64,000 bases of DNA from Cenococcum geophilum (taxonomy: Eukaryota): positions 1,364,001-1,428,000 of the forward strand of contig CP158635.1 in assembly GCA_050273025.1 (NCBI GenBank), written 5' to 3'. Of this stretch, positions 4,531 through 57,614 are shown in pieces. Each line of letters begins with the position of its first letter. Position 1 is the stretch's first letter. Both the position numbers and the translations under genes were made by a program. The notes beneath the pieces are model-generated. The model ran no database searches. It saw nothing but the letters and a program-made list of their open reading frames with translations, and was not told the origin of the DNA.

Positions 4531-4899
4531 AATCAAAGGTCCTTGGAGGAAACAAAACATACAATCAAGAAAAGAGAGGATGGCATAAATAGTTGCCATC
4601 TTTATAACTATCGAACCCCGCCCACTTCGCTTGGGGATCGATCCCGCGAGTCAGCTGCGCCAGAGAGCCAGTACCAGCGGCCTCGGCACACTGACGCTAA
4701 ACTGCTTTTGCAAACACGGTCAATTCTATGGCGGCCACGAAAGCCTACTGGACACGTCCTCCTCGTTGTGTATCAGGCCTCAGACCCGGCCCGAGCATAG
4801 CCGGGCCCCTAGCGCAGTTAGGGCAGAACTTGAGGCGCTCTTATTAATACTAGTCTCTGTCGAAGAAAATGCCACTTTCCTTTAACTAATTCGCTATCT

Positions 4900-28000: not shown

Positions 28001-31000
28001 GTTTCGGCCACTTGTTAGCCGAAAAGCTATATAGAGTCCTTAAACGCTTTAGACATAACGACGTTAATAGGAAGGTAATCGACCACCTAACTAAATACTG
28101 CTCCTTTTACTAGAAATACGGACGTTCCCTAGGCCGATTTAAGTTCACCCTTTATAAGGACCTTAACTTCAACCACTTAGTGTACGTGGATATTATATAT
28201 ATTAACGGCAGTCTAGTATTATATATAATTAATAAGGCAACCCGCTATTAAGCTGCCCGTTAGTTACAAAATATATCTATAAAATATACTTGGGATATCT
28301 ATAAAATATACTTGGGATATTTTATAGACTTACTGGATTAATATATACCTTAGACCTCCTGAGTATATTACCTATAACGCTAGTAGGAACTTTATTAGTA
28401 AGGAATTCCAATAGTATACTACGGCCATAGCTATCTCTATAAAAGCCGTTTTAGTTAAGGCGTATTAGTCCGTTAGGCTTATTAAGCGAGCTTACCTAGC
28501 TTTACGGAGAGCTTACTAGATTATTATGGACGAGTGTAAGGATATTTAAAAGGAACTGGCTTTATAGATAGCCGTAAAAGCCATTAACGACACCGCCGGC
28601 CCTAACGGACTAGTACCTACCCTTTTAGTTTACGGAGTTTACCTAAGGATAAGCAACCTAGGCCCTTCTGCCCCGTCTATTACGGAACGAGCAGCTGTAA
28701 TACGGAAGGTAATAGCCGAAATAGTTAAATTACGGGCTAAATAAGCTGTTAATAGCGCCCTATATTACCGTAACGGACCTAACACAACCTTAGTATATAA
28801 CCTCCCGCTTAATTCTAAAGTCCTTATATAGCGTAAGAGCGGTAATTAAACAGGACCTTATTATTTACTAGCTGTAGAAGACGAAACGTGCTGTATATAA
28901 CTCTCTAGCGGACTAACTAGGTTTAGAAGCACGTCTGTAAAACCCTATTTTTGGTCTAAAAACACCTATAACGTTAAGCTAGACGAACTAGAAGCACCTG
29001 CCGAATTAGGTAAACTAGAAATACCCGCTGAATTAAATAAACTGGAAGCACCCTTGCCTACCCTAGAGGTTCCCTAGAAACCTACTAAACCTACTAAACC
29101 TGTTGTAAAGCGTGGCCGAGGACGCCCCCATAAGAACCCCGTAATAGAGAATTATTTAACCTTCGTAGGTATATCCGTAAGGCAATCTCCACCTACAGAT
29201 ATATTAGTTCTAGTATAGGAAACTCCTTTTACGGACTTATAACGCAAAGAAATCAACGGACTACTTAAAAAGGGCGTCTTTACAATTATAACGGAGAGAG
29301 ACGTTCCGCAAGGCGTCCGTATATTTAACTTACGCTTTATTAACAAAATTAAGCACCCTAGTACTAATAAAGCCTTTAAAAAGTTAAGGCTTATTATATA
29401 AGCTTATAACGACTAGGGAAAGGACTTAGTCCTTATATAATTACCTACAATTTAACGGGTTAGTTAATAGATTATACTTACACTTATGCCTAGATTACAG
29501 CAAATTAAACCTATAGCCCTTTACTTACGGGACATTTTATAAGCCTATATACAGTCCAACATCTACCTAAGTAGGGATATCTTTATACGACTACCCCGTA
29601 AGCTTAACCTATAACTAGGAATAATTTTACGGGTTATAAAACCTCTATACGGAGTACCGGAAGCTAGAAACTATTAGTTTAAGACATACCACTAGCATCA
29701 CGTTAGTAAGCTTAAAATGGAACAGTCGACCTATAACCCCTGCCTCCTATACAGCCTATTAAACGGCCTTAGTATTGTTAAACTTTAAATAGATAATACC
29801 CTATTCCTAGCAGACCAGACCTTTACGGATACTAAAGAAACTAAACTATAAAAGGCCAAGTTCTTAGCAAAGCCGTAAGAGTAGTTAACTAAGTAGAGTT
29901 TAATTAAGTTTAATAGAGGCCTAATTATATAAAAGGGCAACCTAATTAAGCTGACTTAGGAACGCTAAGCTTAAAACCTAAAGCCTATTATAGTAAAACC
30001 TACGGACCTTACTAGTTCCCGCGGAGAGACCCGTAAAACCGTAAATATAAAGGACTAATATGCTACATAGCGTGCAAGAGGCGCCTATATTGCCATAGTC
30101 TGTTAACCTAAATCTGCCTATAATCTATCCTTTACGGCCTAGGCAGTAGACTCGTAAGAAGAAAATATTAAGCAGCTTAATAAGCGCATCTAGTGGCAAA
30201 TTAACAATGCAGTAAGGGGACTTACTTTTGTACCACTAGACCTAAATTCCCTTAGCCTACTAGTATTTACGGACGTATCTTTTACTAATAATAAAGACCT
30301 ATTATTACAAATCGGCTTTGTAATTGTACTTACAGACCGCAATTAGAACGTAAATATACTATATTAGTCTTTAATTAAGTGCAAACGAGTAACCTATAGT
30401 GTACTAGCTTCTAAACTATATGCACTAGCTTATGGATTTAATATAGCAGCCGCAATTAAATTAACGGTCTAGAAGATTCTATAACTAGAGTAGTTACCCC
30501 TGGTTTTATACACTAATTTAAAGTCCCTTTATAACTGCCTAGTTAAACTAGGTATAATACAAGAGAAGAGGCTTATAGTCGACCTAATGTGCTTACGTTA
30601 GGCTTATAAACGACGTGAGATTACAAAGGTTAAATGGATTAGCAGCGGAGATAACCTAGCAGACGCTATAACTAAGGCAAAGCCGTATTAAGCTCTTAAA
30701 ACCCTAATTAATACAAATAAGCTCAACCTAAAGGTTATAAAATGGGTAGAGCGAGACTAACGGAGTATTTATAGTTTAGTTACGGCCTATCGGAAGGCCG
30801 TACGGTGCATTTACGGCCCGTTAAAAGGCCGTACAGTTCATTTTACGGACCGTAAGCAGGACTTACGGCCAGCTTAGAGTACCATTTAGAAGGTAACCCA
30901 GAAGGCACCTTAGAAGGGATTTCCTATATATTTTCTTATGTGTTTTATAGTTCTATTAAGATAATTACGGAGGCTATATATAAGTGGTTTTATTCTCCAA

Positions 31001-31281
31001 GTACCGCTAGTATATAATTATAGCACCTATCGTACTAACCGTATGCTTATACGTTCGGTACGCCAAGTACACGTTTACGCGTTTAGTGTACTAACTACCC
31101 GCTTACGCGTCTGGTGCACTTCTAAAGCACTAACTAATTAGGGGGGGGGCGCATTAGTATATAGACTACGTAGTCTGCTTTATATAATTGACAGTCACTA
31201 TTATCTAAACGAGCATACAATACTATACGTATTTCGTGCCCCTGGATCTAACTTACTCGTGCTATTAAATTAGTACGAACA
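25006..31281 (+). mobile_element. Ty1/Copia LTR retrotransposon C (same family as B)
   Basis: LTRs at 25006-25276 and 31011-31281, TSD attct. Readable remnants include a gag zinc knuckle (CFICGKEGC), integrase HHCC region (RRFGH), RT (KPLYGVPEA) and RNaseH (ADAITK). Confidence 0.92.
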
Positions 31282-32015
31282 ATTCTATCTATAAGTAATA
31301 GGGGGTTTATAACCTTTACGGACCGTAATAGTGCTATATAGGGCTTAGAAAGTCTACTAAGGCGCTAGAATAAGGCCTTAAGGACTATAGTAAGTCTCTA
31401 AGTATTTAATAATTCGCTACTAAATACGGAGGTAGGGGTATTTTTAGCTTTAAGCAGCTCTTATAGTTATTTAATCTTAATATTAGCTACTACTAGCTCT
31501 GCCTAGGGGGTTAAAACATTAACTATTTTATTATTTAAGGTATTTAAAGGTCCTATAGCTGCTTTACTAGATGCTATCTTTCTTAGTATAGTAGTAGGGG
31601 TATTAAATAATTCTAGGTAAATTCTTTAGGGGTTTTAGTCTATACTTATCCTATTTTTAGGGTTTATATTCTTTTTATATTCTTTTTTAGTTTTAGTTTT
31701 TAGGTCTTAGTTCTTGTTTTAGTTTTTATCTTTAAATATATTTAAGTTCCTTCTTAGGAAGAAAGGGTGGATAAGCTTTAGATAATATTAGTAACTTAGT
31801 TAATTAAGGTATAAGTATAGTAAGAGGGACGCGCAAGCCTATCCCTTAACCCGGCGCGTATAGGTCGGCTAGACTACGCTAAAAGGTCGGCCTGATAAGC
31901 GAAACCTCCACCCACCACACCAAATCTAACCTTCTCTCTCTTACTTTGACCTTACCTTTTACCTCACCTTCTATTACAAATCTATTAAATACATTTAAAA
32001 TCTATTTAAAACACA

Positions 32016-33210
32016 ATATCTAGCACTCTAAAGAGCTGTATAAGCTATCTGTAACCCATTCTAAACATATTTTAACAGTTTAGGCTACCTATAAAGCCTA
32101 CCTAGAAATAGAGAGACTCCCTAAGGGAGTTAATGCTTTCGTTGTGGTAAGTAGTTCTAGATGTATTTAGAACACGTTCCTAATACAATACTAGCATAAT
32201 AATAAGGTGGATTTAACTATAGGGGAGGTTTTTTGTTAGTATAATGTCTCGCCTAATCTAGAGAATCCGGTACTGTATGGGGTAAGTAGATAAGTATATT
32301 AGGTTTATAATGCATTGCTAATATATTTATAACGCGTTTAGAAAAAGGTTAGAGATTATAGCGCCCTTAGAAACTATATAAAGAAGTATAGTATTAGAAC
32401 TAAGAATATTAGAAAAAGAGGGGCTCCTTCTATTAAAAAGTAAGAAAAAGTAATAGGTATATATTCTAAACGTGTTCTTAATATATTTATAACTAGTTAC
32501 TAACCCATTACAGCCTTCTATTCTATAATTATGGCTATATATAATTAGAACATATTAGGAACCGCTTTTAAATATAATCCTACTAGTCTAGGCCGCTCTA
32601 CTTCTGCCTAACCCCCCTATACCCCTACCCTGGCTCCCCCTAGCCGCCCTTCTAGGACTATTACCCCACAATTAACGGCTCCTATTTAAAAGAAAGTTAT
32701 ACCTATTAGATTTAAGAGTGGGCCTTAAAAAGGCGATATAAGATATTTCTAACGTATTTATAATATATTCTAATTTATTTCCTAGTATAACTTTCCTAGA
32801 ATGGTCACTCTACTTAAAGATTTAGGTGCTAAGGTTCTATATACTAAGTATTTAGACATAACTTCTAATTATAAGTTAATTTAGAACCCGTTTTAAACCA
32901 GTTAAAAATTTATTTTAAATTTCTTACAGCTTACTTATTTAAGGATTATCTTAATTAGAGCTACTTCCTTAATAATAGGTTAGATAATACTAAGACTCCT
33001 ACTCTAGCTCCTACTAAGACTTCTAAAAAGGGTTTAAAGAAGTCAGGTTTAAAAGGCTTAAAGGCTATAAAGAAAAAGGCTGCTAAACTTACTAGAATTA
33101 CGGAGGAGGATATTATAGTAGCTATGTTTCTATAGATAACCTAAAATCTAGTTATAACGTATTTATAACACGTTATAAATAGAATCTTATAGATAGAATT
33201 TAGACTTAAA
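32016..33210 (+). pseudogene. RIP-mutated, multi-intron accessory gene of the AT-TSD transposon; C2H2-like zinc-finger pattern
   Basis: Short exons between GTAAGT..YAG introns. They read GEVFC*YNVSPNLENPVLYG|KKVRDYSALRNYIKKY, which reverts by C>T/G>A to a C..C..LRxH..H pattern. Start and end are approximate. Confidence 0.55.
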
Positions 33211-34950
33211 TTTTAATAGGGTTTTATACCACTTTAGAATATGTTTATAATACGTTAGGTAGTAAAAATAAAAGTCATTAGTTAAATTATAATATCTATT
33301 AAATTTTACTAACTTTAGCTCTTTTTAATAACTCCCTTTATATATTTTATAATTCTAATAATTTAATTATAAATTAATTATTACTTAAATAAACCAATAA
33401 TCCTAAAGTAGGGAAGATATACTAGAGAAACAGGTGAAGAAAGCAAAAGAAAAATGGTGCTGCTTTAGGGCCTAGGCCCATATAGAGGAGGAAGGGAGAC
33501 GTGTAAGAGGCCAGCAAGGACAATAGTAAGAGAAAGAAAGGAGCTAAAGTAGAGTATAAAAGAATGCTAGGAAACTATCTACCATAATATAATACTGGCT
33601 AAACTAACGCTAAAGAGGTATATAGAAGTCGAAGGTACAGAGGTTAATTAAGGCAAGAGGAACCTAAGCCGTAGTATAGTTAACGCTATAGGGGGTAAAT
33701 ACTCTAGGGCTCTGAGAAGGCCTAACGAAGGTAGAAAATATAATAGTAATACTTTTAAGAATAGGAATAATAGGACTAAAAGACTAGCTCTAGTAGGTAG
33801 GTATTTTAGTAGGTAGCCTAAGATGTAAATATAGCTAGCTAAAATAGACACTAAAACACGTAATACTATTATGCTCCTTATGTACTAACTAAGAAGTAAT
33901 ACTCTTAGTAGCTGGCACAGAGAACTATAAGACACTGCTCTTAATATAAAAAGGCCTTAAGGCGGTTACCTAGTAGCTTATTAGCTAAAATATACTAAAC
34001 TAGTTCTGGGTTATAAAGGAAATAATAATAAAGGGCGGGGGGGCGAGTAATGGGCGCCCCCTAATAACTCTATAGTAGTAGAGTAAAGTATACAATACTA
34101 GCGCGTCCGTAGGCTTATTACGGCAGCAGTGGTTCCTAAGGAGATTAAAAAGTAAGGTAGTAGGAGCACTATAGGTGACTCGCAGGCGCCTTACAGGCGC
34201 CTTATAGGCGAGTCCTAAAAGGTAAAGAGATGGATTATGGGGTTTTCTCAAGTTAAGTCTTTCTTAAGTTAAGTTTTCTCCCTATATATAAATAAGGAGT
34301 AGTCCATGTGGGCCTAATAGGGATCTAAATCGGACGTTAAGCAATAAACTACTATTATTAATTATTACTTAAATTCTAATAAAATAAAAATCTTTATTTT
34401 TAAAAATAATATAATTATATAATTAAAAAACCCTTTTAAATTATATTGTATTATATAATTTTAAATAAATATTACTAACTTTTTAAAGTATATAAATTTT
34501 AAGCTAATATAATAATTATAAAAAAATTTAAAAATAGTTATTTAAATAATATATAAAATTAATTATAAAATTAATTATAAAATTAGTTAATATAAAACTT
34601 ATTATTTTATTTAATATATTTTAAATTAAGTATTAACTGATAACTTTCTATAGGTAACTCTATTTATACATATAAATAAGGCTTAAATATATAAATAGTA
34701 AATAGTAAAAAGTAAAATAATAGATTTTTATTAAATAGAATAAAGAGGTATTAACATTTCTTATAGTCTTTTTTTCTATTTTTTTTACTATTTAATAGTT
34801 ATTAGTATCTTAGTATTTTATTATATAACTATAAATTCCTAATTAAAAGATTTATAAATTATTAATATATAATTACTAATATATATTAAGTTGCTTAAAA
34901 TAGATATATATATATATATATAACTATAGCGCTATAGTCTAGAGGCTATA

Positions 34951-37900
34951 TATTACGGGACGGGGGCAGTGGCTATAAAGCGTATGTATTTAAGGAGTCT
35001 ATAAGACGTTGCGCGATCAATCGTAAGGGTCGAGGGCGTAAGGAGGTAATATACCTACGCGTAGCTGATATAAGCTATACGCGAGGTATATATAAGAGTA
35101 CGGGGCTCTCCTATAGAGGCCCCTGCGGTAGGGTTTTATAATACTACCCCCCCTCTTATAGAGGCGGAGCTCTAGCGACGCTGTAGTTACTATATATATA
35201 TAGAAGAGACACTTAAGGTATAGAAAAGAAGAAAAGGGGGGTATCGCTAAAGGCTTAAAATAACGTCATGTAATAGGGCTTGGTATCTAAAAATCTAACT
35301 AATTAGATAACTTTAACTGCTGGTTAAAGTTCCTGGACATCTTAACGATATTCTGGTTATATGACTGCACTTTATCGCAATCTAATAGTAATCTGACGGT
35401 AATTTACCCTTACGTAGTAATATATAACGGTTTAACTTTATAAGGGCTCCTATAGAGGATTAGGTATAAAGTCTCTGCTTAGGCCCAGTTTCTATAGGTT
35501 CGCGTAGTAAAAGTTGCTAATTAGATCCTTTGCATTTTTAAAGTCTTTCTATAGTTGCCATTCTAGCTAATCTATATTAAATCCTGTGTATATAGCTCTA
35601 TAGTAGAGCCGTTGTCCTCTGCCCTTGCTAAAGTATTTAGAGTTAATAATTTGTTTAACGGTCCACTCCTTATAGTTCTCGTCTTTATTCTTATCTTAGA
35701 TTAGTACTAATAGGGGTTTAGGCTGTGTCTGCCCTAGTAAGGGGTTGGGCTAATAGAGGTATAGTAGCCATGGGTGAAATATAGGCTATATCCCGCGGGT
35801 AGCTAGGGTAGGTAGGAGTTCTAGCTTATATACGGCTCCCCTATTAATAACTCGTTTAATTAAATAGGGGCTGAGGTTCTTATAATTAAGTGACTTTATA
35901 GGCCTCTGTATAGAGATATTATATATATCTAGCTATACCTAGTCGCCAACACGTATCTCTGGTGGTGGCGTTTTATAACAGTTAGCAAAGTAGGCCTGCT
36001 TTACTTAAGCCCAGGCCATTTCTCCCTTATAGTAGTTAAGTAGATTTTTTATATAGTCTGTATACTGGTCAGTAAGTAGTATCTTAAGGCGTTTTCTATA
36101 TGGCAGTTTCTTATTAATAGGTTCTGGTGGCTTTATACCGGATTGGGGGTAATAACCCTTGTTCGCGAAGAACGGGGTAAGTCCTATAGTGGTTAAGATA
36201 TAGTTATTCGCTATAAATTTACCTAGTAGGAGGTAATCTACCCAGTTATTTTAACTATAGGCGACTACTTATTATAGGTACGCTTTTATACTAGTATTAG
36301 CGTTTTCCGGTTACTTAGCAGTTTTATAATAAAAGGATATAGATATCTTAACAGAGATGCTAAGGCGTTAGTAAATTCGTCTCTATATATTAGAGTTAAA
36401 TTATATGCCTTAGTTGGACGTAATTAAGTTAGGTAGCCTATATAGTCGGTAGACTTCGCGAAGAAAGGCGTTAGTAACGTCGCTAACGGCTACACCTTTG
36501 GTTAGGACGTAGTGGTGCTCTTTTATAAGTTGGCATATTATTATAAGGATGTTCTTATAGGTACGGCCGTGTCGTTTATAGGGTAGTAGGTTAATAACAA
36601 AATCTATAGCGATATCTGCCTATTGTTATATAGGTACTAGTAGAGGGTATAGTAGTCCTTAGTACTTTGTATTAAAGGCCTTGGCGCGCTTATAACTATA
36701 ATAGGCGCCTATAAAGCGTTTAACTAAGTCTATTATTTTTAGCTAGAAGTAATATCGGCTAAGAAGCTTATAGGTTCCTCCTCTACCTAGGTGGCCGCTT
36801 AATTGGAGGTTGTGGGCCATTTAGATTAGTTGCCGTTATAGATTTTCTAAGTTAGGGATAAATAGGTGGCCTCTATAATAGAGCCTGTTTTCTTTTACTT
36901 TTAAGGCTACTATATTAATCTGGCCTAAGCTTTAGAGGTTAGTAGGTAGTATATAGGTGCTAGCGGTCTTTACGGCAATAAGTTAATACAGTAATAGGTC
37001 AATAGAGGCGTTATATACCGTAGTAATAAGCTTATTAATTTTGGGAGGTAACTCTAGTTTTATGGTATAAAGCTGGGGTATAGTTAGCTCTATTGTAGGT
37101 AGTATACCTAAGGCTAAATTTTATGCTTTTAGGATTATCTGTTGTTAGAACTAATTATAGGGGTTATTTTTAGACTAAGGAAGGTCTTGCAAGCGGCGTA
37201 TTAGGCTATTAGGTTTAGTACCTTATACTCCTAGTCTATATATAATTTTAAAGTTAAAACTAGAGAGGAACTCGTTCTAACGTGCTTGGCGTTAGTTTAG
37301 CTGCTTTATAGTTATAAAGTACTTAAGATTGCGATAGTCTGTAAGGACTTTAGTTGGCTGGTCAGGCTCTGCTAAGAAGAGTTCTAGTTAGAATTCTTTA
37401 AACGCTTATATAATTGTAAGGAGTTCTTTATTATAGATCTTATAGTTATACTCTTATAGTATAAGCTTAGACGAGTAAAATGTAACTAGGTAAAGGAGAC
37501 TGTTATCGCCTATCTGGGAAAGGATATCTGCGTTAATATGGTCTAAGGAGTCGGTTTTAAGGTAGAGTTATTATCCTAGTGTAAAGTAAGCTAGGATAGG
37601 TGCTTTAGTAAAGGCATTTTTAAGGTCTTAGAACGCCTTCTTATATTTAGGTATCTAGGTTGTAACGTGGCCCGCCTCCACGTCGCCATACGGCCAAAAA
37701 GACTGAGAGTGCTTGCGAACTTGTCGCAAGCGCGGCGGGACCTAATATATATACTCTTACAATTGCCCTCTCCTCTGCGCGCTCGTCCCCGAGCGCTCGC
37801 AGGGATTCCTCTGTGCGCCCGTTCGGGCCTCCACAGGGATCAAACGCCAAGAGTATCACCATATTAGTTAGTCCCCAGTAACGTAAGCGATCGGACTCAG

Positions 37901-40900
37901 CCGACCCGCCTCATCGCACGGATGCGTGTTAGACTGTACCAGAGCGAAGTGACCGATGGGGATCGAACCCACGACACCTGGCCCCAGTAAGTTCGCAAGC
38001 ACAATTGTAACGTGGCCCGCCTCCACGTCGCCATACGGCCAAAAAGACTGAGAGTGCTTGCGAACTTGTCGCAAGCGCGGCGGGACCTAATATATATACT
38101 CTTATATAGGTAAAGCGTAGGTACGTTTTTCTTCCTTTTATAGAAAGGCCCTTTATTTACATTATTGCTATAAATAGTGCTACTACGCCTAAGAAGTTGT
38201 ATATAAATTTCTAATAGAAGTTAGCGAAACTAAGGAAGGCTTATACGTCCTTAATGCAGTTAGGGGCTTACTATTCAGTAATTATATATACCTTCTTAGG
38301 GTTTATACGGATACCCTTAGTAGTAATAATTAGTCTAAGGTATTTTACTTCTATAACTAAGAATTTGCATTTCTTTAAATTAATATAAAGTCCTATATCC
38401 CTAAGGCGCTATAGGACCTTTTAAACGTATTCGGTATACTTAGAGGGGTTATCGCTATAAATAAGTATATCGTCTAAGTACGTAGAGCAGAAGTCGTTAA
38501 GGTAGTCTTATAAGGCGTTATTAATATAGCTTTAGAAGGTACCTGGGCCGTTATATACGCTAAAGGGTATAACGGTATATTTAAATTGGCTAAAGCGCAA
38601 TACGAATGCGGTTTTTTATTTATTACCTTTTCGTATTTAGAGATAGTTAAAGGCGGCGATAATATTAAGCTTAGTATAGATTTTGGCTTAACTAAGCCGC
38701 TTAAGGGTCTTACGTATAAGCGGTACTAGGTATTAGTTTTTAATTGTAATAGCGTTAAGTCCTCTATAGTTAATATAGAATTAAATACCTTCTCCTAGCT
38801 TCTTAGTAAGAAGGATAGGGGCAGCTGTTAGTAATATGCTAGGACGAATAAATCCTTTGTCAAGGTGCTTGTTAATATACTTTTTTATAACTAGAAGCTC
38901 ATCTTTTAATATTAGGTAGGGTTTCTTATAAGGTAGCATTTTTCCTTATTTAATGTTAATGGCATAATTATTAGGTTAATGTAGGGGGAGTATATCTGCG
39001 CTCTTTTGTAAGCATATATTGGTAAAGTTATAATACCTCTTAGGGAGGAGCTTGCGGAGTTCTTTATTAGTGAGTCCTTTTTTAAGCTTTATAAACTTCT
39101 TAAAGTCTAAAGGTAAAAGTCCGTAGAATTCCATAGGGGCGTCATCTTCTAAAAGGTCGACTATATCTATCCTATTACTGTAGAGGACGTAGTCCTGTTC
39201 TTTATTAAGCTTATATAGTTATAATTAGGAAGCTGTAGTAACGGTTTAGCCTTTCTTACATACTATGCGGTAGAAGGCTAGGGTACTTACGTAGTGGTAG
39301 TTGGTTATAGGTAGGGTAATAAGGGGTTCCTTGGGTTAATATCTTAGGGAGTAAATAAAGGTAGCTAGGCTATGCCCTAGGCAAGTCTCTCTATAGTATT
39401 TAGAGTTAAAGGTTACTTCTCTTTTCTTCTAGTTAATGGCGGGGTTATATTATTTAAGCTAGTTTATTCTAAGGATAATAGGGTAGTTGGTAAGTGGTAT
39501 TATATAGGCCTAGGGTTCTTTCTAGTACCTATTTATATCTAGGTGGAGTTATGCTATATAGGTAATCTTTTATACGGTGTAATTACCATTAGCAAGTTAT
39601 AGGGCGCGGGCTTTAGTAAGGGGTAAGGTAGGTAGGTTATAAGTATGTATAAATTAGGTATTTATAAATTTATTAGTAGCTCCGTAATTAATTATAGAAC
39701 GGCTTTTATATTATTTTTTAGTAGTAGTTCCTATTATAGGTAAAACTATCTATTTTTATCTATTTATCTTTATAGAGTTATCTATTAAGCAAGCCGATAT
39801 ATAGATCCCTCCGTTATTAGGGCGTCTTAACCCACAACTTAGGGCTAGGACTTAGCGTTTTCTATTTCCGTATCTAACTCTACTGCTATTACTACGTCTT
39901 TATCTTATACGGTAGTGGCACGTAGCAACATATTTAATATTTAGGGTATTAGGTTAGGTATTAGGCGGCGGCTACTAAACCTAGCTATTAGGTAGTTTGG
40001 GTTATCGCGATAATAGCCTTCTTAACGGCATCTATAGTAGCGTCCTAGTTTCCAGAGTAGCTTATGCTCTCTATCTAGGAGTTTCTATAGGAAGGTTAGT
40101 ATAGAGAAATCGATATTAGTTCCGGTAGTACTTAAGGTAGTAGGCGTTAGTGGCTTAGTATATATAGGTTTAGTAGGCCCAGGGGGCTTCTATAGAGAGA
40201 TCTTTAGGTAAGGGTTAGTAGTAGTAATCTAATTTAGTTGTCGTTTAATCTTTTATAGAGCTGCTACTATATTATAAACATTGTTATATTTATGGCTGGC
40301 GGCTGCGTAATTAAGGCGATAAGTAACTTTTTTAAGGAGGTCCTTTTAGTCTTTAGTATTGTCTCGGGCGAGGGCTCCGGTATATTCCTAAAATTTAATA
40401 TAAAATTCGTCGAATAATTTAGTAGGGCTTATCTTTAGGGCACGTAGTTTAGCTCGGTTGGTAGCTAATAGGTTATAGTCGCGGTATATTAGGTTAAGAT
40501 TATTAAGGACTTCTTAATAGGACTGCTACTTCTAGGGGCTACTAGTCTCCTATTGGGCGAAGAGTCTATTAAACAGTGTACCCTTTATTCGCCCGATAAT
40601 ATAGCCAATCTTAGTGTCTTCTATAGGAAAAAGGTAGGCGCTCTAAGTTAGTTTCTCGCGGATTTATATCTTCTAGTGGCTGTATTCCTTGCAGTCTCCC
40701 TAAAAGATTAGGGGATTAAAGTAGCGTATATTAGACCTTACGGTGGCAGTTTAGGTCCGATTATTATAGCTTTTATTATTACTGCTTTAGTAGGGGTTCT
40801 TATTAGGTGAAGCTGCTTAGCGCTAGCCCTTTATTAAGCGTTAAGTAGGTAAAGTTGCCAGGGGCGTAAAAACTTGGGTGGCGTTATATGTAGTAAAGAG

Positions 40901-41764
40901 GTGTCTAGCGTTGTTACGAATGTGCTTATTAAGCTAAGATTATAGGTATTTAATTATGCCTTCTCTTTTAGTAACTATAGCAATTAGTATAATCTTAGCC
41001 TTCTTTAACTGTTAGATGTCGCGTTTAGACACGCGGAGGTTATCTTTAGTTTCTTAATATGTGTTATTGGCGAGCGCCTTACGAGCTTGTAGGTCTTAGA
41101 TAATATTGTAATCTTAGATAGTACGCATCTTAGCTCGTATAAGCTTTAGGTAATAGTTCTATAGAAGGCGGTAGTATTTATTAGGGTCTTATGCTACCAT
41201 TTTTATAAACGTCTCGGCGTCTCGTATTTTAATTTTAATAGGTAGTAGCCCTTCTATTTGCTTGTCCGTAGTTATATAGTTAATAAAAGATAAGACATTA
41301 TCGGTGTCCATCTCCTTAGGGGTTAAGGCTAAGGCTAATAAATTAAATTCTCCTAGGATTGATTGGCGTTGTAGGTTAGGTATAGGTATTAGATTATTCT
41401 TTAGGTTTAATATAGTAGCTAGTAAGGGATATCGTCTTACTATTATGGGTTCCTTAGAAGTATAAAGTAAGGTAATTTATAGACACGCTGCTTTTGGTAG
41501 CGCCTACAGTATTATAGAGACGTAGAATTGGTCGTAGGCTGAGCGTTAGTAGTAAAAAAGGCGTAACATAATGTTATGGGACGGGGGCAGTGGCTATAAA
41601 GCGTATGTATTCGAGGAGTCTACAAGACGTTGCGCGATCGATCGTAAGGGTTGAGGGCGTAAGGAGGTGATATACCTACGCGTAGCTAATATAAGCTATA
41701 CGCGAGGTATACGCGAGAGCACGGGGCTCTCCTATAGAGGCCCCTGTGATAGGGTTCCGTAACA
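34951..41764 (-). mobile_element. Chromoviral Ty3/Gypsy retrotransposon D nested in the AT-TSD transposon
   Basis: 193-bp LTRs at 34951-35143 and 41572-41764, TSD ctata, PPT complement (ccccccctc) next to 35143. RT (YLDDIL ~38470), RNaseH, IN and chromodomain remnants are on the minus strand. Confidence 0.92.
37661..38106 (-). mobile_element. TRIM (446-bp non-autonomous LTR element)
   Basis: 101-bp TG..CA LTRs at 37661-37761 and 38006-38106, identical except the terminal CA>TA. TSD taggt; PPT complement gccctctcctct. Confidence 0.93.
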
Positions 41765-41899
41765 CTATATATATAGTATTATATATAGTATTAGACATTA
41801 TATAATTAAACAAGTATAAAAAAAGGCCTAAATATACGTATATTTTAATAAGAACACAATAGGAATATATTTAGAATGTATTTTATATTTAGTATACTC

Positions 41900-44800
41900 A
41901 TTTTTATATATAAGCCTTTATTGCCTCTAGTTAAATTCTTTTTTCCATATTCTCTAGCTTTTTTACCTCTAATTTAATCTCTATTTTACGAAGTTTAAGC
42001 CTCTAGCGTCTTTTCTAAATATCCTAGTTATTACTTGGGGCCTAATGCTTTAGTAGTTGCGGGAGACTGGTGCTAATACGCCTAGAACGTATTAGTAACC
42101 GGTTACGTATACATTAGAATATAAATATACCTTATAATTCCTTAAATGCTATAGAGGATAACCTAAAATATAATGCAGATCTAGATCTTAGCCCCCTTAA
42201 ACATCAAGCAGAACTAAATCGTAACCTTACTATACCTAATAATAATGCACAAAATAAAATATTATCCCCGCTATTATTAGCAGCGGCCTACTCTAATTCC
42301 TCTTAAAGTTATTAACGTTTTTATTCTAAACGTGTTAGGAACCGGTTTAGAAGAGGTTCGCAATAAATATATACTCTTTTTACCTATATAGTTTGCATAC
42401 TAGGCCAATATTAATATATTTCTTTGCATATATTATATTCCAAACTAGCTCTAAGCAAAATACTAATTAACGTCCCGTTAATCTAGTTTTTGTGCGCTAA
42501 ATATAATATAAGTATATTATAAACGGGTTAGGAACGTATTAATACCTTATAACAATAGGAAGAAGAAACTAATGTATACCAAATGTATATAATTTATTTG
42601 CTATTTATTCTACTACATTTATATAGTATCTTAATCTATTAAATAGCTCGTAATTAACTAGAGAGCAGTGCATATTTAACCCTAAGGCAATAACTAGGTG
42701 TCTCTTATATCTTACCTAGTTAGCAACTAATTAAGATTCGTATACTATGCTATTAACACCTTTTAAACACATTATAAATGGGTTCAGAATAGCTTACTAA
42801 TTAGTAAATTATAGAGTTCTTTATATTCTAACTGGCTCCTATATATAAGAAGAGCTTTTATCCATTTATATACAGAGTAGGCCGTTTTATAGTTACCCAT
42901 AGCTCTTAAAATGCTTTATAGGAAGTATACTTAGTAGAAAACTAGTGTTTTCCTAAGATGCTATATCCAATTACGCCTCTAAGGATTAATATGCTGTAAA
43001 TACCACCCAAACCCTTTTATAATACGTTAGGAAGGCGTTCTAATTACGTTCTAGGTATCCTATTAGCTATTTACTTACCATTTATATTAGATATAATAGC
43101 TTTAAAGCCTCCCTTATTACCATAAATGTGTTTCTAATAAATCTGCTTCTAAAGATATTTAGAAAGTAATTAAAAGACTTACTTAAAGCATAACTGGTAA
43201 GTACGCCTTATTTCTATATTAGTAATAATATATATAAACGTAAAAACTATTAGAATATATTAGTATCGCGTTCTAAACGGGTTTATATTATATAATAATA
43301 CTTTTACTATAACGTATTCCACCATCGAGCCGGCAGAACCATCGAGCCGGCAAGTCCATTTCCCAACCAAAAATTATAAAAATCACAATATAATATCTTA
43401 ACAACCACTTAATAATAAATTCTAATAATTTAGATTTAGACTTTTATATACACTCTATAGCTTCTATTAAAGTTGCATAGTAAATAGTTTAGTAGTTTTT
43501 AAGATATAGTAATTTAGCTATATTTTGGCCCCCAAATTTTAATACCTTAAAAACTACTAAACTATTTACTATGCAACTTTAATAGAAGCTGTAGAGTGTA
43601 TATAAAAGTCTAAATCTAAATTATTAGAATTTATTATTAAGTGGTTGTTAAGAGATTATATTGTGATTTTTATAATTTTTAGTGGGGAAATGGACTTGCC
43701 GGCTCGATGGTTCTGCCGGCTCGATGGTGGAATACGTTACTCTTTAAGCTAAACAGCGAATATAATCTCGTTTATATTTCTTTTAACAATATATTTAAAA
43801 GATATATCAACTTCAAATATAGTTTAGGCTAAGAAGATCTTAGCTTGCTCTTATAAAAAGCAGATTATTATAACTCCATTTTAATTATTATAGATCTATT
43901 AAATATAAGCCTATAACGTATTAGCAAGCCTATTAAAACGCATTCGTAATATATTTATATACTATTTTAGGATTTTGATGCTTTTAATCAAACTTATATA
44001 CTACCCCTACTAGTCCTTTTCCTTTTGGGTATAAAGTAAGCTTCTCTTTTTAAATTAATCTAGTAATATAATCTATAGTAGCAAAGCTTACATAAATCTA
44101 TACTAAAGAGGCCTTCCTATACTCCATGCAAAACTGTTTAAGGGCAGGACTTCAAAGGAACTTTCCTATAAAGACATTAGGTATTTATTTGCAATTAGTT
44201 TAAAACGTATTTACTAAGAGTAAGATCTAGATTACGCATTTAACAAACTAACTTAATTACCTCATTTAGTATCTTTAGAGGCGGCTTATTTAGGGGGGGT
44301 GGTATATAACTATATACTCCATATAAGGTAAAATAAATATAAGAAGTTTCTTCTAATTCGTCTGGAATAAAAATATATAAAGTAACCTCGCAGTCCTAAT
44401 AGATAAGTTTCCCTGGTCCCTAAGGGTAGTTAATTCTTAGGAATACGTTACAGATACATTATAAACGTAGTTAGAACGCGTTCTAAGTAGGTTATATTTT
44501 TCTTACCGCAGTCTACCCTCCTATAGAGATTTGATTTAATAACTCCGCATTACTCCGTTACTTTATCATCTATATTACCTAGTTAAATAAGAGATATTAA
44601 ATACGCAGTATTATATTTCTTATTCGCTAGTAATACTTTTCGGAAGTACTCTAAATATATTTTTATAGTAACCTATATATAGGTAAGAAATAAGTGCCAA
44701 ACATTAGTAATATCCTAATGTAATTAGTTCTAAATGTAATTTAGTTGGGTTCTAAATATATTTAAGTAAAGTAATTACATACAGAGTATCTTTATTAGTT

Positions 44801-45350
44801 AATCATTAGTATACAAGCCTCTATTTAAGAGCTATATGCATTTCTAGCTTAAAATTGTCTTTAGGCTGCTAAAAACAAGCTTATATACATTAACTTAAGT
44901 ACTAAATAAATTTGGAACTAGTTCTGTACCTATTTATATTACGTTTACAAATATCCGGGTCGCTTCTATCTAGGGCTACCCGCTCTCTCTATATTAGACC
45001 CCACGTCTCTTTAGAAACTATAGTATATCTTAAAAATCGTAACAAATTCTGAAGATATTCGCATTATTTTACTCCTAAATAACGCATTTTATGTTTTTTA
45101 CCTCTTACATTTAAGAGAGCGGACGTTATAGGCTTAGGAGTATACACTTATCTAGTTCCATATTAGATCTAAACGCGTTATAAACTAGTTATAAATATAG
45201 TTAGAGTATAATTTAGATTTTTATTAACTTACCTGTATAGCTTTTTGTGCATCTATACCTCTTAAGTTAATACGGTAAGTATAACCTTCATTTAGCATCT
45301 ATAGGTACTTTAAAAGGCTTAAAGCTCTGCACGAAGCTCTATATATAGAG
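41900..45350 (-). pseudogene. RIP-mutated multi-intron DDE transposase with N-terminal Cys/His motifs and CxxH
   Basis: De-RIP readable motifs in order: GVK.CEYL (~45070), G.H.H.PPP (~44300), FEVD(M)SFK..NEIIFA (~43810), W.HIHG..AII.(DMD) (~43090), HLRKTLVF(CQVH)F (~42930), (W)VR(H)K..GLN.HCS (~42690), then a C-terminal coiled coil. The catalytic E was not placed with confidence. Confidence 0.75.
43312..43737. mobile_element. pogo/Fot1-type foldback MITE, 426 bp
   Basis: TA TSD and ACGTA termini; almost the whole element is one inverted repeat with a doubled accatcgagccggca motif. It is inserted in the transposase gene. Confidence 0.92.
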
Positions 45351-45384
45351 GCTCTGCACGACGGCTCTGCGTACGACGGCTCTA

Positions 45385-45560
45385 CTGCGGAGGCTCTATA
45401 TAAAAGCTTTGTGCAGAGCTTTGTGTAGAGCTTCGTGCAGAGCTTTATGCGGAGCCTCCGCAGAGCTTTAAGCGGAGCCTCCGTAGAGCTTCGAGCGGAG
45501 CCTCCGTAGAGCTTTGAGCGGAGCCTCCGCAGAGCTTCGTGCGGAGCTTTGTGCGGAGCC
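45385..45560. repeat. Tandem array of 23-bp (agagcttcgagcggagcctccgc-like) and 12-bp (agagctttgtgc-like) units
   Basis: Directly visible degenerate tandem copies at the 5' side of the transposase gene. Confidence 0.8.
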
Positions 45561-46665
45561 TTATTCCGCAGACTTGTCCTTAGGATATTTAGATAAAAGT
45601 AGTACCATTTTAAAGCGCTTTATAAGCTCTATAAATCTATACTAATAGAAAAATTATTTATATAATATTGGGGGGTGCATTATAAGTGTAAGTATATTAG
45701 GGGGTTTTGCTAAGACTATCCGGAGACTATCCGGATAGTCTCCGGATACTATCAGCTGATAGGTCTATTATCCAAGAGGCCTATCCGGCCTATCCTCCGC
45801 AGGTCTAAATCAGAACAACGCGTAGAATTAAACCATCAAATATACCACCACCATGCCTTCTAATCACGCTAGAATTAATGTAGATCTTGTTCAGAAGACT
45901 TAGTATAAGATTCCCCTAAATAAGACGGCGAAAAAAACCCCCCAGAAGCCTTGGCTACTCCCCGAATTGTGTATTCCTAAGCACGGCTACCGAATCCTAC
46001 CGATCTAATTGGTGGACTCTTATTGATAACCTGCGTGCCTAAGTTGACGGGTTAAGGGATATAATTGGATTATCTATAAACGAGGATCTAAAGCTAGAGA
46101 AAGGAAAGGAGAAGAAGAGTAGCGCCGCTTGATGTTTTATAAGATCTTCGCGTTACGTGACCGCAATATGCGGCAATTTATGGCAACTTGCTAGTACGGA
46201 GGACTATAAAGTTCTGCAACCAAGTTTTGCCATTTTCTGCCAGTGCCGTGATAGTAAAGGCATTTACTCCTAAGTTAGCTAAAGTAGTAGTTAAAACTTA
46301 ATATCTATTACGGAATAAAGTATAAGGGATAGTATGGCTCTTACTACTAATTAGCCGGCCTAGATTAATATACAATATATCGATCCCTTTTAACCCTAAA
46401 GAGGAGTCTTCCCCCAGGGTTTATCTTTTTCTATATAGCCCCACTTGGCGGCATTCCGGCATCAGTACTTTACACCTTATTAGGGACCTTTTGCACCAAA
46501 TTGACGCTAGAGATTGACGAGCCACATACGCTAAAAGGGGGCTTAGTAAGCAATTAAACGATGCAAACAGTTGATTTTTGAATCTATCGCCAATATCAAA
46601 ATCATTAAAATTTACTTCCATATCAACATATGCGCTTACAATGAACCACTAAATAGTCCTTCTAT

Positions 46666-54620: not shown

Positions 54621-54995
54621 TGTAACGTGTCCCGCCCCACGTCGCCAAATGGCCAAAAAGACAGACTGTACTCGCGAATATATCGCGACTGTGACGGGAT
54701 CTAATATATGTACTCTTACAATTGCCCTCCCTTCCGCGCGCTCGTCCTCGAGCGCCCTGCCGCAAGGGGTCCGCCTACCAAGAAGAAGCCCACATATATT
54801 AGCGTCTCCCAGTAACGTAGGCCTTGCCGGGTCGCAACCGCGCCGGACTCATCCGACGCCCCCTCGCATCTAACCCCTGTAGATGCGCGTTGACTGCAAC
54901 TACCAGAGCAAAGTGCGACCGTCGGGAATCGCACCGTCGGGAATCGTACCCTCGGTCTCCTGGCGGCCTCCGAACACCTAGCTCCAATATATTCG
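54621..54995 (-). mobile_element. Truncated, diverged relative of the 37661 TRIM (one LTR at 54621-54720 plus internal region)
   Basis: Colinear similarity to 37661-38000: tgtaacgt..cacgtcgcca..ggccaaaaagac..tactcttacaattgccctc, cccagtaacgta, taccagagc. The second LTR is absent. Confidence 0.85.
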
Positions 54996-56470: not shown

Positions 56471-57614
56471 TATTAGCGACTCAGTCAATCAAGACATAAG
56501 CACGGCAAAAGGGTCGCGCAAGCCTATACGATTGGATTGTCTATAAACGAGAATCTAAAGCTAGGGAAAGGAAAGGAGAAAAAGAGCAGCGCCGTTCGAT
56601 GTTTTATAAGATCTTCGCGTCACGTGATCGCAATATGCGGCAATCTATGGCAACTTGCCGGTGCGTAGTTCTGCCAAGTTCTGCTAAGTTCTACCAGTGC
56701 TATAATATTACCCCCCCCTCTAAAAAAGCCTGCCCTTAGGCTTTGCCGCTAAAAGTCTTAGTAAGAGAATCTAACTAATTAGATAACTTTAACCGCCGGT
56801 TAAAGTTCCTGGATATTTTAATACCTTATATAACTAAGAAATTTCTAGGGCGTTTTTATTCTTATATTCTTCTAGTAGCTTATCGTCTTTATTATACTAG
56901 TATTTTATCTACTTATCTAGGTACTTTAGCGGTCTAGGTTTATTAGGGTAACGGCTATAAAACTCCTAAAGCTTATAGGGGCTACCTATAAAGTTCTATA
57001 TAGGGTATTAAGTAAGGTTTAGGTTATATCCTTTCCAACTAATATAATACTTTAACGTTCCCTTTACAAGTTTATAGGCTAGTATTTCTTTAATTTCCTA
57101 TTTATTATTATCGTTAACTTAAATTGGCAGGGGAGGCTTATTCTTTTATCTAGGTAGTAGGTTATTTATAGCTTTCCATAGCTTATCTAGTAAGAAAATA
57201 GGATAAACTTTAATTAAGTCTGGGAGCTTAACCTTATATAAGTTGCCTACTTTATTAAGAATCTTATACGGTCCTACTATCTTATAGTCTAGCTTATGGC
57301 TAGGCTATTTTATCTTCTAGTTCTTTATTATAATCTAGACCATATCGCCTATAGTAAAGTTAGGCTCGCGCCTATACTTATTTGCCTACTATTTTATTAA
57401 TTTTTAAGCCTTTTTTAGGTTTGTATAGGCTACTTTCTAGGCTTTTTTTAAGCGCTTAGCGTACTACTAGGCTTTTTTATAAGATAGTTTTTCGCGTATA
57501 GTTTGGGGCTCTTTTAGTCTTTTCTAGTTAAAGCTTATACGGGGTAGGTACCCTATTTCTAGTTAAATAGGGGTAAATCCGGTAGAGTTATAGGGTAGGA
57601 TAGCTTAGGCGTAG
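56471..57614 (-). mobile_element. 3' end of Gypsy element F (family of the outer host element)
   Basis: LTR 56471-56707 is homologous to the split LTR 31786/46061. PPT complement ccccccctc follows. 56930-57614 aligns with 7604-8271. Confidence 0.85.

Follow-up and report, generated by a model that had tools for sequence, protein, structure and literature searches.

Palindromic arrays in an 11-bp register fill the introns of a two-gene DNA transposon of Cenococcum geophilum and may serve as recognition sites

Results

The transposon and its two genes

The window, i.e. the whole stretch of 64,000 nt analysed here (Cenococcum geophilum, assembly GCA_050273025.1, contig CP158635.1, forward-strand positions 1,364,001 to 1,428,000), holds a DNA transposon with two genes on opposite strands, split by a nested insertion:

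31842-46059, no strand assigned: whole DNA transposon with two genes; 14.2 kb in full, about 7.4 kb once the nested LTR element is subtracted
34944-41773, minus strand (provisional): nested LTR retrotransposon with LTRs of about 200 bp, which splits the transposon and is not part of it
32016-33135, plus strand: gene L, for an accessory protein that is small (about 145-160 aa) and rich in lysine
41930-45619, minus strand: gene R, for a transposase, RIP-degraded and with no fewer than 12 introns; start and stop approximate

The transposon is bounded by terminal inverted repeats (TCCCTTAACCCG at 31842-31853 and its complement at 46048-46059), its ends giving a 14-bp inverted match (E 0.003), and has TA on both sides (31840-41 and 46060-61). 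In paralogous copies at 56471-56684 and 7425-7562 the two flanks (31786-31842 and 46064-46217) directly adjoin each other; these copies represent empty sites. A 2-bp TA target duplication may be read from these, with uncertainty, as a 2-bp difference adjoins it. The nested retroelement has an LTR pair (34950-35146 and 41571-41767, 90% identical) and a target duplication, CTATA. A further insertion, a foldback MITE of 0.4 kb (about 43319-43730), interrupts intron J10 of gene R. The transposon family is multi-copy and one relative is expressed and spliced; RIP mutation is heavy in the window copy and in most other copies. A tRNA scan of the window found none.

The start codon of gene L has been RIP-mutated from ATG to ATA, and its stop lies at 33133-33135. 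Its homologs, P0059-61, are three hypothetical proteins of Cenococcum geophilum with 53-57% identity across 30-33% of the query, and tblastn is collinear with them once the introns are removed. The first-pass annotation had described the accessory protein as zinc-finger-like; no zinc finger was found in L, and neither L nor the three homologs have a significant Pfam family or an NCBIfam model. The AlphaFold model of L reached a pLDDT of 42, i.e. the fold could not be modelled.

Gene R has 52 homologs at E<=1e-3, including Plenodomus, Polytolypa and Penicillium proteins, and UniRef names two MULE transposase domain proteins among them. The ESM Atlas neighbours of the R catalytic core are MULE clusters (scores 0.92-0.93; MULE family set in 22 of 30 matches), and the order D..D..CxxH..E can be read by eye in P0013, an 857-aa homolog. 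In the window copy the catalytic residues are mutated, VTVDMDGK of the homolog reading IISNINGK. Pfam detected a MULE domain neither in the window frames nor in 13 + 5 homologs, and gave no family in six-frame translations read through stops as X; a profile search of PDB sequences and NCBIfam, and a word search with a 53-aa R exon, returned nothing. The AlphaFold model of P0013 (pLDDT 39.8) was too poor for fold comparison, and the apparent TA duplication is atypical for MULEs. Judged by the UniRef names and the ESM Atlas neighbours, R appears Mutator-like, in keeping with the resemblance to VANDAL elements drawn in the first-pass annotation.

Introns of both genes

The exons of gene R were mapped by tblastn with homologs, and intron limits were taken from protein collinearity and splice signals. 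The introns of the two genes are:

L intron I0: 32040-32083, plus strand, 44 nt, donor GT RIP-mutated to AT, two strong in-phase units
L intron I1: 32147-32194, plus strand, 48 nt, GT + four units + ACTAG; annotated homologs splice to 32239
L intron I2: 32282-32341, plus strand, 60 nt, four in-phase units ending AACGCGTT-TAG; skipped in all three homologs
L intron I3: 32440-32513, plus strand, 74 nt, five in-phase units
L intron I4, or 3' end of a long I3: 32728-32785, plus strand, three in-phase units, donor unclear
L intron I5: 32872-32929, plus strand, 58 nt, donor RIP-mutated to AT, five in-phase units
R intron J1: 45169-45232, minus strand, 64 nt, three units ending AACGCGTT-TAG
R intron J3: 44869-44929, minus strand, 61 nt; donor may be 44949; phased units at 44905-44945
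R intron J4: 44715-44782, minus strand, 68 nt, three in-phase units
R intron J6: 44413-44506, minus strand, 94 nt, five in-phase units including the 16-bp palindrome TTAGAACGCGTTCTAA
R intron J7': 44166-44214, minus strand, 49 nt, GTA + four units + TATAG
R intron J9: 43911-43962, minus strand, 52 nt, four phased positions, three of them strong
R intron J10: 43249-43745, minus strand, own sequence about 75 nt, the rest MITE; three in-phase units at 43254-43283
R intron J12: 43014-43078, minus strand, 65 nt, three in-phase units
R intron J13: 42748-42797, minus strand, 50 nt, GT + four units + AATAG
R intron J15: 42497-42545, minus strand, 49 nt, four in-phase units
R intron J16: 42326-42383, minus strand, 58 nt, four in-phase units ending AACACGTT-TAG
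R intron J17: 42081-42130, minus strand, 50 nt, three in-phase units; placed by splice signals only, homolog alignment weak

The array-bearing stretches are real introns, as established by protein collinearity and, for one intron, by RNA-type contigs. Contigs of run X20, which was taken as RNA by guess and yielded spliced contigs, skip exactly 45169-45232 (J1) with GT..AG ends on the minus strand; the joint does not appear in the DNA runs X1 and X6, and J1 is collinear with the homologs (..AIQ joined to IQYGTR). At J9 the expressed relative has 100 letters against 152 in the window, a difference of 52, and a DNA contig is full length. The reading frame is off by 1 nt across J4, probably through an indel in the degraded copy. 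The 3' limit of I3 varies among the annotated homologs, two of the three skipping as far as 32785, and a doubtful 33-nt intron, I1b, is without an array. An RNA run of organism B contributed only 15 reads, all <90% alike. Five introns drawn by eye (J2, J5, J8, J11 and J14) proved exonic once homologs were aligned, and a dynamic-programming gene model was discarded because it over-spliced to avoid stops.

Sites and 11-bp phasing

The first-pass annotation had claimed 11-bp-phased arrays of AAC-NN-GTT in nearly every intron of both genes. This was confirmed: at least three in-phase units are present in 16 of the 19 transposon introns, a level seen in only 0.4-0.9% of windows in exons and 0.1-0.3% of those in other RIP-type DNA, and each coordinate it gave, including those at 32171, 32331, 32469 and 32491, is a site. 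Pairs of exact AACNNGTT copies lie 11 bp apart at 32885/32896, 42329/42340 and 45172/45183; pairs of an exact copy and a derivative at 33156/33167, 42086/42097, 42522/42533 and 43265/43276; and the run at 44442/44453/44464/44475 reads AATACGTT / GATACATT / AACGTAGT / AACGCGTT.

Over the whole window there are 30 exact sites versus 15.4+-3.9 in shuffled sequence, a number reached in none of 100 shuffles, and 16 of the 30 fall within the 5 kb of the transposon's two gene regions. With the relaxed motif AAYNNRTT, 61 sites were found in 4.7 kb versus 14.2+-3.6 in dinucleotide shuffles; 21 site pairs are 11 bp apart (shuffle mean 0.04, maximum 1), six are 22 bp and four 33 bp apart, and the spacing of neighbouring sites is exactly 11 in 21 of 23 pairs. 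The 19 introns alone hold 41 sites versus 4.2+-1.9 and 17 pairs at 11 bp versus 0.02. Density in introns is 37.6 sites per kb (15 exact, 17 phased pairs) as compared with 3.3 per kb in 3,068 nt of exons, where there are no exact sites and no phased pairs. The lag-11 peak that had been anticipated also appears when 18 introns are autocorrelated with no motif specified (z=9.9 for lag 11 and 7.5 for lag 22), and not in six host introns (z=0.4).

Elsewhere in the window the pattern is lacking. The motif is carried by none of the six host introns, and the first-pass annotation had noticed no such arrays in host introns; there are no exact sites in the host region 1-5000, and the motif is absent from the host genes and from three other repeat families of the window. 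In 45.6 kb of other RIP-type DNA no site pair is 11 bp apart, and the interior of the nested LTR retrotransposon has only two exact sites and no phased pair. Tandem Repeats Finder reports period-11 arrays at nine of the array places, with 70-92% matches and only 1.9-4.1 copies. The transposon also carries 11-bp repeats of unrelated units (45713-45753 and 34183-34210).

Arrays, generally weaker, also adjoin the coding regions, and the introns are not their sole location:

31979-32017, plus strand: three to four weak units immediately before the start codon of L, presumably 5' UTR
33145-33256, plus strand: two arrays beyond the stop codon of L, at 33145-33185 and 33238-33256, presumably 3' UTR
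41853-41882, minus strand: three weak units downstream of the R coding end

The presumed promoters and ends of the element (31842-31978 and 45620-46059) have no arrays.

Structure and decay of the unit

Only the six triplet positions of the unit (AAY, RTT) are conserved, at about 0.9-1.2 bits each and about 90%, the other five lying at background level (0.07-0.42 bits), a contrast that is partly circular since units were picked by motif match; the lag-11 and shuffle tests are free of this circularity. Identity at the free positions is 0.294 within an array versus 0.328 between introns (permutation p=0.95). Units within an array are thus no more alike than units across introns, which points to constraint on motif and spacing and not to recent slippage. 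In a minisatellite, units would be alike over their full length and neighbours most alike; here the free positions are at background.

The two genes, on opposite strands, share one motif and do not differ in the range of its centres. Read on the transcribed strand, the three-base spacers are rich in pyrimidines (TAT 14 versus ATA 3, CCT 7 versus AGG 1), and most of them (TAT, TAG, CTA) are not branch-point-like. The branch point CTAAC is built into one array unit, one unit per intron reading yCTAAC; the donor (GT-AAGT) is often in array phase, in seven introns, and the acceptor follows the last unit by 3-7 nt in 13 of 18 introns. As to the RIP derivatives described in the first pass, decay fits many of the imperfect units: where the C survives, A comes next in only 4 of 26 units, and where the G survives, T comes before it in only 3 of 25. 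At two positions within introns, the majority of the other genomic copies have a G that restores AACGCGTT or AACGTCTT. RIP would later have degraded about two thirds of the sites in the window copy, together with the genes.

Ancestral intron positions

In a distant relative, the metagenome locus L001, about ten introns coincide in position with those of R (J1, J3, J4, J6, J7', J9, J10, J12, J13 and J15, within 1-2 codons; for J3 at the same protein position), and its introns have no arrays (lag-11 z=1.8, no phased pairs; all lag z <2 except 3.7 at lag 4). This comparison has one usable relative and no close sister family, the other 22 of the 23 metagenome loci being too distant or fragmentary for intron comparison and mostly of 18-28% G+C. 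The introns are therefore ancestral and the arrays were laid over them. Intron lengths have stayed short (44-94 nt in the transposon, 53-64 nt in L001, 50-59 nt in the host), which indicates that the old sequence was replaced and not merely extended. Judged against L001, the arrays are lineage-specific, and in this lineage nearly whole introns were rewritten, from splice site to splice site, into two to five copies of the 8-bp palindrome AAC-RY-GTT in an 11-bp register.

Discussion

We tentatively propose, at somewhat less than even confidence, that the arrays are cis recognition sites which selection has maintained in transcribed but non-coding parts of a Mutator-like transposon with two genes, and that they are not intron creators. 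The palindromic sites would be read on double-stranded DNA by a putative dimeric protein, a reader suited by a palindrome with a free central pair and a spacing of about one helical turn. This putative reader is most likely a product of the element itself, either L, which is small and basic, or the N-terminal, cysteine-rich part of R, and its dense binding across the gene bodies would tag element copies as self, so that transcription is kept or silencing countered, in parallel with the action of VANC on Arabidopsis VANDAL elements. The self-recognition reading of the first-pass annotation thus stands in part: it agrees with the genuine introns, the absence of arrays from exons, host genes and other repeats, the Mutator-like transposase and the position-specific conservation, which is as expected of recognition sites, and no zinc finger was found in L. 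Several observations count against it: no DNA-binding domain is recognisable in L, the presumed promoters and ends are free of arrays (which would suit a role in RNA as well), the spacers are biased on the transcribed strand, the VANC motifs differ in their arrangement as described below, and the RIP mutation of the window copy and most others leaves the element unprotected here.

The arrays might instead act in the pre-mRNA, making short introns splice efficiently or robustly, for instance so that the transcripts escape surveillance of poorly spliced transposon transcripts. In Cryptococcus, spliceosomes stalled on transposon introns trigger RNAi, which provides a precedent, and the restriction of arrays to transcribed non-coding parts, with presumed promoters free of them, the splice signals within the array register and the strand bias of the spacers would all fit. 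We nevertheless consider this account unlikely. It is not obvious what a palindrome would do in single-stranded RNA, the 18 introns fold no more stably than shuffles, branch-point-like units number only about one per intron, and the introns of L001 and of the host splice without such arrays. Arrays also lie in the non-coding flanks of both genes, where splice sites are not evident, and splicing alone is therefore insufficient as an explanation.

It is also unlikely that the arrays have no function and arose by 11-bp tandem duplication or copying between introns, with spread by concerted evolution through non-coding DNA. Tandem duplication would give the near-invariant spacing of neighbouring sites and the period-11 arrays reported by Tandem Repeats Finder, the element may be prone to this period in view of its other 11-bp repeats, and VANDAL motifs too are described as having spread as tandem repeats. 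Neutral decay, however, would blur all 11 positions, and here five are at background and six conserved; the units of an array are no more alike than those of different introns; the introns stayed short, their sequence replaced; and about 19 separate introns and several flanks would have to converge.

Distinctly unlikely is an effect of DNA geometry with no sequence-specific protein, either phased AA/TT bending or nucleosome setting, or 11-bp triplets that engage the homology sensing of RIP or meiotic silencing. AA and TT do recur at a fixed 11-bp period, and two triplets per 11 bp are common to all arrays and all copies. Each array, however, spans only 22-55 bp, and the homology lengths required for RIP far exceed this; the arrays are out of register with one another across exons; a fixed C and G and a purine-pyrimidine centre are unneeded for bending; and the family is heavily RIP-mutated anyway, with no protection evident. 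The relevant precedent is the work of Gladyshev and Kleckner (2016), whose account of Neurospora describes RIP as detecting homologous trinucleotides interspersed at 11 or 12 bp, with 36% overall identity sometimes sufficient (PMC4858203). Trinucleotides at an 11-bp period with free bases between them are common to both systems, whereas theirs, as described there, was an experimental design with repeat pairs of hundreds of bp and ours are short natural arrays. A bolder form of the recognition-site proposal, which we regard as a long shot, would make the introns and untranslated flanks a phased landing pad for the element's own small basic protein, an anti-silencing system independent of plant VANC, its 11-bp register chosen as the comparison period of RIP and meiotic silencing so that the element is masked or mis-registered in homology sensing.

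That the introns were created by an inserted repeat unit, such as an introner-like element or tiny transposon, is barely credible: all transposon introns are alike with one building unit and both genes are far more intron-dense than Cenococcum geophilum genes (three exons per gene according to PMC12910237), but creation from a repeat, the alternative raised in the first pass, is contradicted for at least nine or ten introns by the positions in common with L001, whose introns are ordinary, and further by the ordinary lengths, the lack of predicted stable RNA structure (mean z -0.05 against shuffles in 18 introns, one of 18 below -2) and the motif-free host introns of the window. Introner-like elements of Dothideomycetes, as summarised in PMC3609843, number in the hundreds and sit in unrelated genes, exceed regular introns in length, have stable folds and mark intron gains. 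They resemble the present introns as mutually similar fungal spliceosomal introns, in the class of the closest homologs here; those of the transposon differ in being of ordinary length, unstructured, at ancestral positions and known only from this element. The passages of the 2026 Cenococcum genome paper (PMC12910237) consulted here contain no 'MULE', 'TIR' or 'tandem repeat' and describe no such arrays.

Returning to recognition sites, the closest known system is VANDAL21/VANC21. VANC21 occupies dense arrays of short motifs in the non-coding DNA of its own MULE, whether intronic, intergenic or terminal; these are arrayed in one orientation, and in the part of the report by Hosaka et al. (2017) that concerns us no fixed spacing is given (PMC5735166). 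On that account the present element would, like VANDAL21, be a Mutator-superfamily DNA transposon with a transposase and accessory gene(s), and in both a short motif is dense in the element's own non-coding parts including introns, is rare elsewhere (here, in the window) and accumulates by tandem repetition; that it is specific to a lineage among related elements is described for VANDAL and would fit, here, the single comparison with L001. Here, unlike the VANC motifs so described, the motif is palindromic, keeps strictly to an 11-bp register and fills whole 50-nt introns. The fungal element further lacks the array-type motif at its termini, and L has no detectable similarity to any known family, family models of L and its three homologs in Pfam and NCBIfam giving no VANC homology. 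The hosts differ as well, a fungus with RIP here and a plant with RNA-directed DNA methylation there. Among the plant elements Ac and En/Spm, subterminal repeats are read by the transposase or TnpA, palindromic or inverted pairs being bound cooperatively, and these repeats are located outside the genes, no more than a few hundred bp from the element ends. Short motifs repeated many times inside the element are common to these and to the present transposon, for which an element-encoded reader is only predicted; in contrast, the sites here occupy introns and untranslated flanks at distances of 0.14-4.2 kb from the ends, and the termini are without the motif. Literature searches on AACNNGTT returned bacterial papers only, and none was found that joins introns, 11-bp periodicity and a transposon.

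To our knowledge, transposon counter-silencing is established for one plant family, VANDAL/VANC, and we know of no comparable counter-silencing in fungi, whose contest with transposons is dominated by RIP, DNA methylation and heterochromatin. That the array period matches the 11-12-bp register in which RIP senses homology is a lead. Whatever their function, the arrays represent an unusually clean rewriting of intron content under non-coding constraint, with intron positions fixed; and the cis side of a counter-silencing system may be readable here from sequence, in a motif that is clear and fixed in its spacing and comes with two candidate proteins.

Structure and setting of the array-bearing element

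The window is of fungal origin. Its G+C-normal host genes (1-5000, 47-49 kb and 53-56 kb; introns of 50-59 nt), which to the eye resemble a permease and a cytochrome P450, are separated by A+T-rich blocks with the TpA excess typical of repeat-induced point mutation (RIP). Self-comparison revealed several LTR retroelements. The arrays belong to a single DNA transposon:

31842-46059: DNA transposon carrying the arrays
Both element ends: terminal inverted repeat of 12-14 bp, TCCCTTAACCCG
34944-41773: nested LTR retroelement (target duplication CTATA, LTR pair), dividing the element into left and right parts

The sequences flanking the element are joined up in two paralogous repeat copies (56471-56684 and 7425-7562), which serve as empty sites, and a TA at each flank is taken, with reservations, as a 2-bp target duplication.

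The left part, on the forward strand, codes for a small lysine-rich protein, L, which shares 53-57% identity with three annotated proteins from Cenococcum geophilum (143-162 aa) and is collinear with them once introns I0, I1, I2, I3/I4 and I5 are taken out. The donors of I0 and I5 are RIP-mutated from GT to AT, and the homologs are at odds over 32514-32727 as exon. The accessory gene had been described in the first-pass annotation as zinc-finger-like, a description that gained no support, as L showed neither a zinc finger nor any other domain; its structure model was too poor for use (pLDDT 42).

The right part encodes, on the minus strand, the transposase R. A Pfam search of the raw window frames found no family; the read-through frame of R, searched against 1.84 billion proteins, matched 52 of them at E<=1e-3, the long matches being Pezizomycotina hypothetical proteins (Plenodomus lindquistii, 857 aa; Polytolypa, Penicillium subrubescens, Eremomyces, Aspergillus nidulans and Bimuria). 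Two of the homologs carry the UniRef name MULE transposase domain protein, a Pfam search of the homologs themselves gave no domain, and the neighbours of the catalytic core in a language-model search were MULE clusters (scores 0.92-0.93). R seems to be a Mutator-like transposase, whose catalytic aspartates have become asparagines through RIP (VTVDMDGK in a homolog is IISNINGK here). Alignment of these homologs to the window by tblastn gave collinear minus-strand exons from ~45619 to ~41930, with at least 12 inter-exon gaps that start with GT and end with AG (J1, J3, J4, J6, J7', J9, J10, J12, J13, J15, J16 and J17). Five more introns, guessed by eye, proved exonic on the homolog alignment and were rejected.

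Two organisms carry the family in multiple copies in their DNA (872 and 627 aligned contigs, differing mostly by transitions). Intron J1 (45169-45232, minus-strand GT..AG) is exactly missing from two contigs 91-95% alike, in a run only guessed to be RNA, and this joint was not seen in either of two DNA runs. A diverged relative of R, on a 3.4-kb high-depth contig from the run guessed to be RNA, matches the window in exon patches only; a stretch of 152 letters in the window corresponds to 100 in this contig, the gap of 52 being the length of J9, and a DNA contig retains the full length. True RNA reads of the second organism, with G+C-rich flanks, also match the diverged relative (public runs X20 and X21 against window 43739-45300). 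Expression of an un-RIPped paralogue therefore seems likely in the two organisms.

Other repeats in the window

Upstream of R, 45713-45753 holds a different 11-bp tandem repeat (AGACTATCCGG, 3.7 copies) with a 22-bp perfect palindrome, and adjoining it, at 45413-45547, a 23-bp repeat of 5.8 copies lies in the stop-free N-terminal frame of R and would therefore give peptide repeats. The stretch separating the 3' end of L from that of R (33421-34930) comprises 0.9 kb of moderately G+C-rich sequence, including an 11-bp repeat (CAGGCGCCTTA, 2.5 copies) inside a palindrome at 34183-34210, and 0.6 kb of A+T-rich low-complexity repeats. A ~0.4-kb foldback MITE (43311-43738), whose long inverted arms are near-perfect, sits within J10, exactly inside a motif unit; as the target is palindromic, either TA or ACGT may be taken as its duplication.

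A second LTR retroelement is present in two full-length copies of opposite orientation (12609-19192 and 25006-31282), 84% identical over 6 kb, with LTRs of 270-280 bp. A 100-bp direct repeat, perfect in both copies (37660-37759 and 38005-38104), surrounds a G+C-rich, apparently un-RIPped segment in the nested, RIP-mutated LTR element, and may represent a recent SINE or solo-LTR insertion; a 136-bp stretch at 54621-54755 is related to it. Part of this sequence resembles the 3' half of a tRNA, but ARAGORN found no tRNA in the window. A 258-bp direct repeat (46952-47209 and 48730-48987, 97.7% identical) surrounds a 1.5 kb G+C-rich stretch and could be either a segmental duplication or a pair of LTRs belonging to a young, un-RIPped element.

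Phased palindrome arrays in the introns of both genes

The first-pass annotation had claimed that the palindrome AAC-NN-GTT recurs at 11-bp spacing in the introns of both genes, and a site was present at every coordinate it named. The window contains 30 copies of the exact form AACNNGTT, compared with 15.4+-3.9 in shuffles, and 16 of the 30 fall inside the two gene regions of the element, which span 5 kb; RIP-type degeneracy (AAYNNRTT) gives 61 sites in 4.7 kb against 14.2+-3.6. Inter-site distances are nearly all 11 (21 pairs), 22 (6) or 33 (4) bp; shuffles yield a mean of 0.04 and a maximum of 1 pair at 11 bp, and the other 45.6 kb of RIP-type window DNA holds none.

Distribution of AAYNNRTT sites between introns and exons of the element
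Introns: 1,116 nt; 42 sites (37.6/kb); 15 exact; 17 pairs at 11 bp
Exons: 3,068 nt; 10 sites (3.3/kb); 0 exact; 0 pairs at 11 bp

When each intron was shuffled separately, the 41 observed sites compared with 4.2+-1.9, and the 17 observed pairs with 0.02. Motif-free autocorrelation of 18 element introns peaked at lags 11 (z=9.9) and 22 (z=7.5), compared with a lag-11 z of 0.4 in six host introns, so that both the intronic enrichment and the 11-bp peak anticipated at first pass are borne out. Counting as an in-phase unit any with at least 5 of 6 fixed letters, 16 of the 19 introns have at least three and 18 at least two, the sole exception being the doubtful 33-nt I1b; windows reaching three units make up 0.4-0.9% of exon and 0.1-0.3% of other RIP-type DNA. 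Weaker arrays lie outside the introns, and none was found in the ends of the element or its presumed promoters:

31979-32017: weaker array, just upstream of the L start
33145-33185 and 33238-33256: weaker arrays, downstream of the L stop
41853-41882: weaker array, downstream of R

The array makes up the whole of the ~50-nt introns; I1, J7' and J13 consist of GT(A), four units and a 5-nt tail that closes with AG. Seven introns have their donor in phase with the array, one unit per intron provides the branch point (spacer-CT plus AAC), and the last unit stands 3-7 nt before the acceptor in 13 of 18. In both genes the spacers are rich in pyrimidines on the transcribed strand. This match of register to splice signals, the strand bias and the confinement of arrays to transcribed parts would suit a role at the RNA level in splicing; we consider this unlikely, however, since the motif is palindromic, arrays occur in the flanks too and the introns have no more RNA structure than shuffles (mean z -0.05; 1 of 18 below -2).

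The unit is AA[C/T]-R-Y-[G/A]TT followed by three free bases, with 0.87-1.18 bits at the six fixed positions and 0.07-0.42 at the others. The centre favours purine-pyrimidine (AC/GT 27, AT 14, GC 7 of 76), so the site stays a palindrome. The imperfect copies are consistent with RIP decay: of the 26 units that retain the C, 4 have A after it, and of the 25 that retain the G, 3 have T before it. Where this copy has A at 43942 and 44176, the majority of other genomic copies have a G, which restores AACGCGTT and AACGTCTT. At the five free positions units are no more alike within an array (0.294) than between introns (0.328; p=0.95). Two triplets are thus under strong position-specific constraint, in a rigid 11-bp register, across ~19 introns and several flanks in two genes. 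Such position-specific conservation speaks against a functionless product of repeat dynamics, which we hold slightly less probable still, even with the exact period and the further 11-bp repeats of the element (45713-45753 and 34183-34210) in its favour. An action through DNA geometry, including coincidence with the 11-12-bp triplet period described for RIP homology sensing in part of PMC4858203, is improbable.

Introns older than their arrays

The R protein alignment, run against metagenome contigs, picked out 23 loci, most of them very A+T-rich, distant and not RIP-like. One of these, L001 (41% G+C; 34-44% identity over residues 46-727), is an intact-looking gene with ordinary 53-64-nt introns, located within 1-2 codons of the protein positions of J1, J3, J4, J6, J7', J9, J10, J12, J13 and J15; it has no phased pair and no lag-11 signal (z=1.8). 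The shared positions without arrays indicate that the intron-rich structure is ancestral in the transposase family and that the arrays were overlaid on pre-existing introns in the lineage of this element. They rule out for most introns the first-pass alternative of intron creation from a repeat unit, which we regard as highly improbable overall. Cenococcum genes average three exons according to the available portions of PMC12910237. The family extends well past RIP-bearing ascomycetes, since transposase relatives also occur in soil-type metagenome contigs of only 18-28% G+C that lack a RIP signature (TpA/ApT below 1).

Possible recognition of the arrays by a protein

Our literature search found nothing relevant to the motif or to phased introns, and the available portions of the recent Cenococcum genome paper (PMC12910237) mention no MULE, TIR, tandem repeat or such arrays. 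The closest precedent is Arabidopsis VANDAL21, whose anti-silencing protein VANC21, as described in part of PMC5735166, relieves silencing and binds a 9-bp motif that is densely arrayed across non-coding parts of its own Mutator-like element (introns, intergenic and terminal sequence). Its anatomy closely parallels that of the arrays here; it differs, however, from the strict spacing and palindromy found here, and L has no known fold. The triplet constraint is specific to one element lineage, and its simplest cause would be a dimeric protein recognising the palindrome on DNA, whose occupancy would require many sites. By analogy, we tentatively propose that the arrays of this element may be recognised by such a protein in a VANC-like manner.
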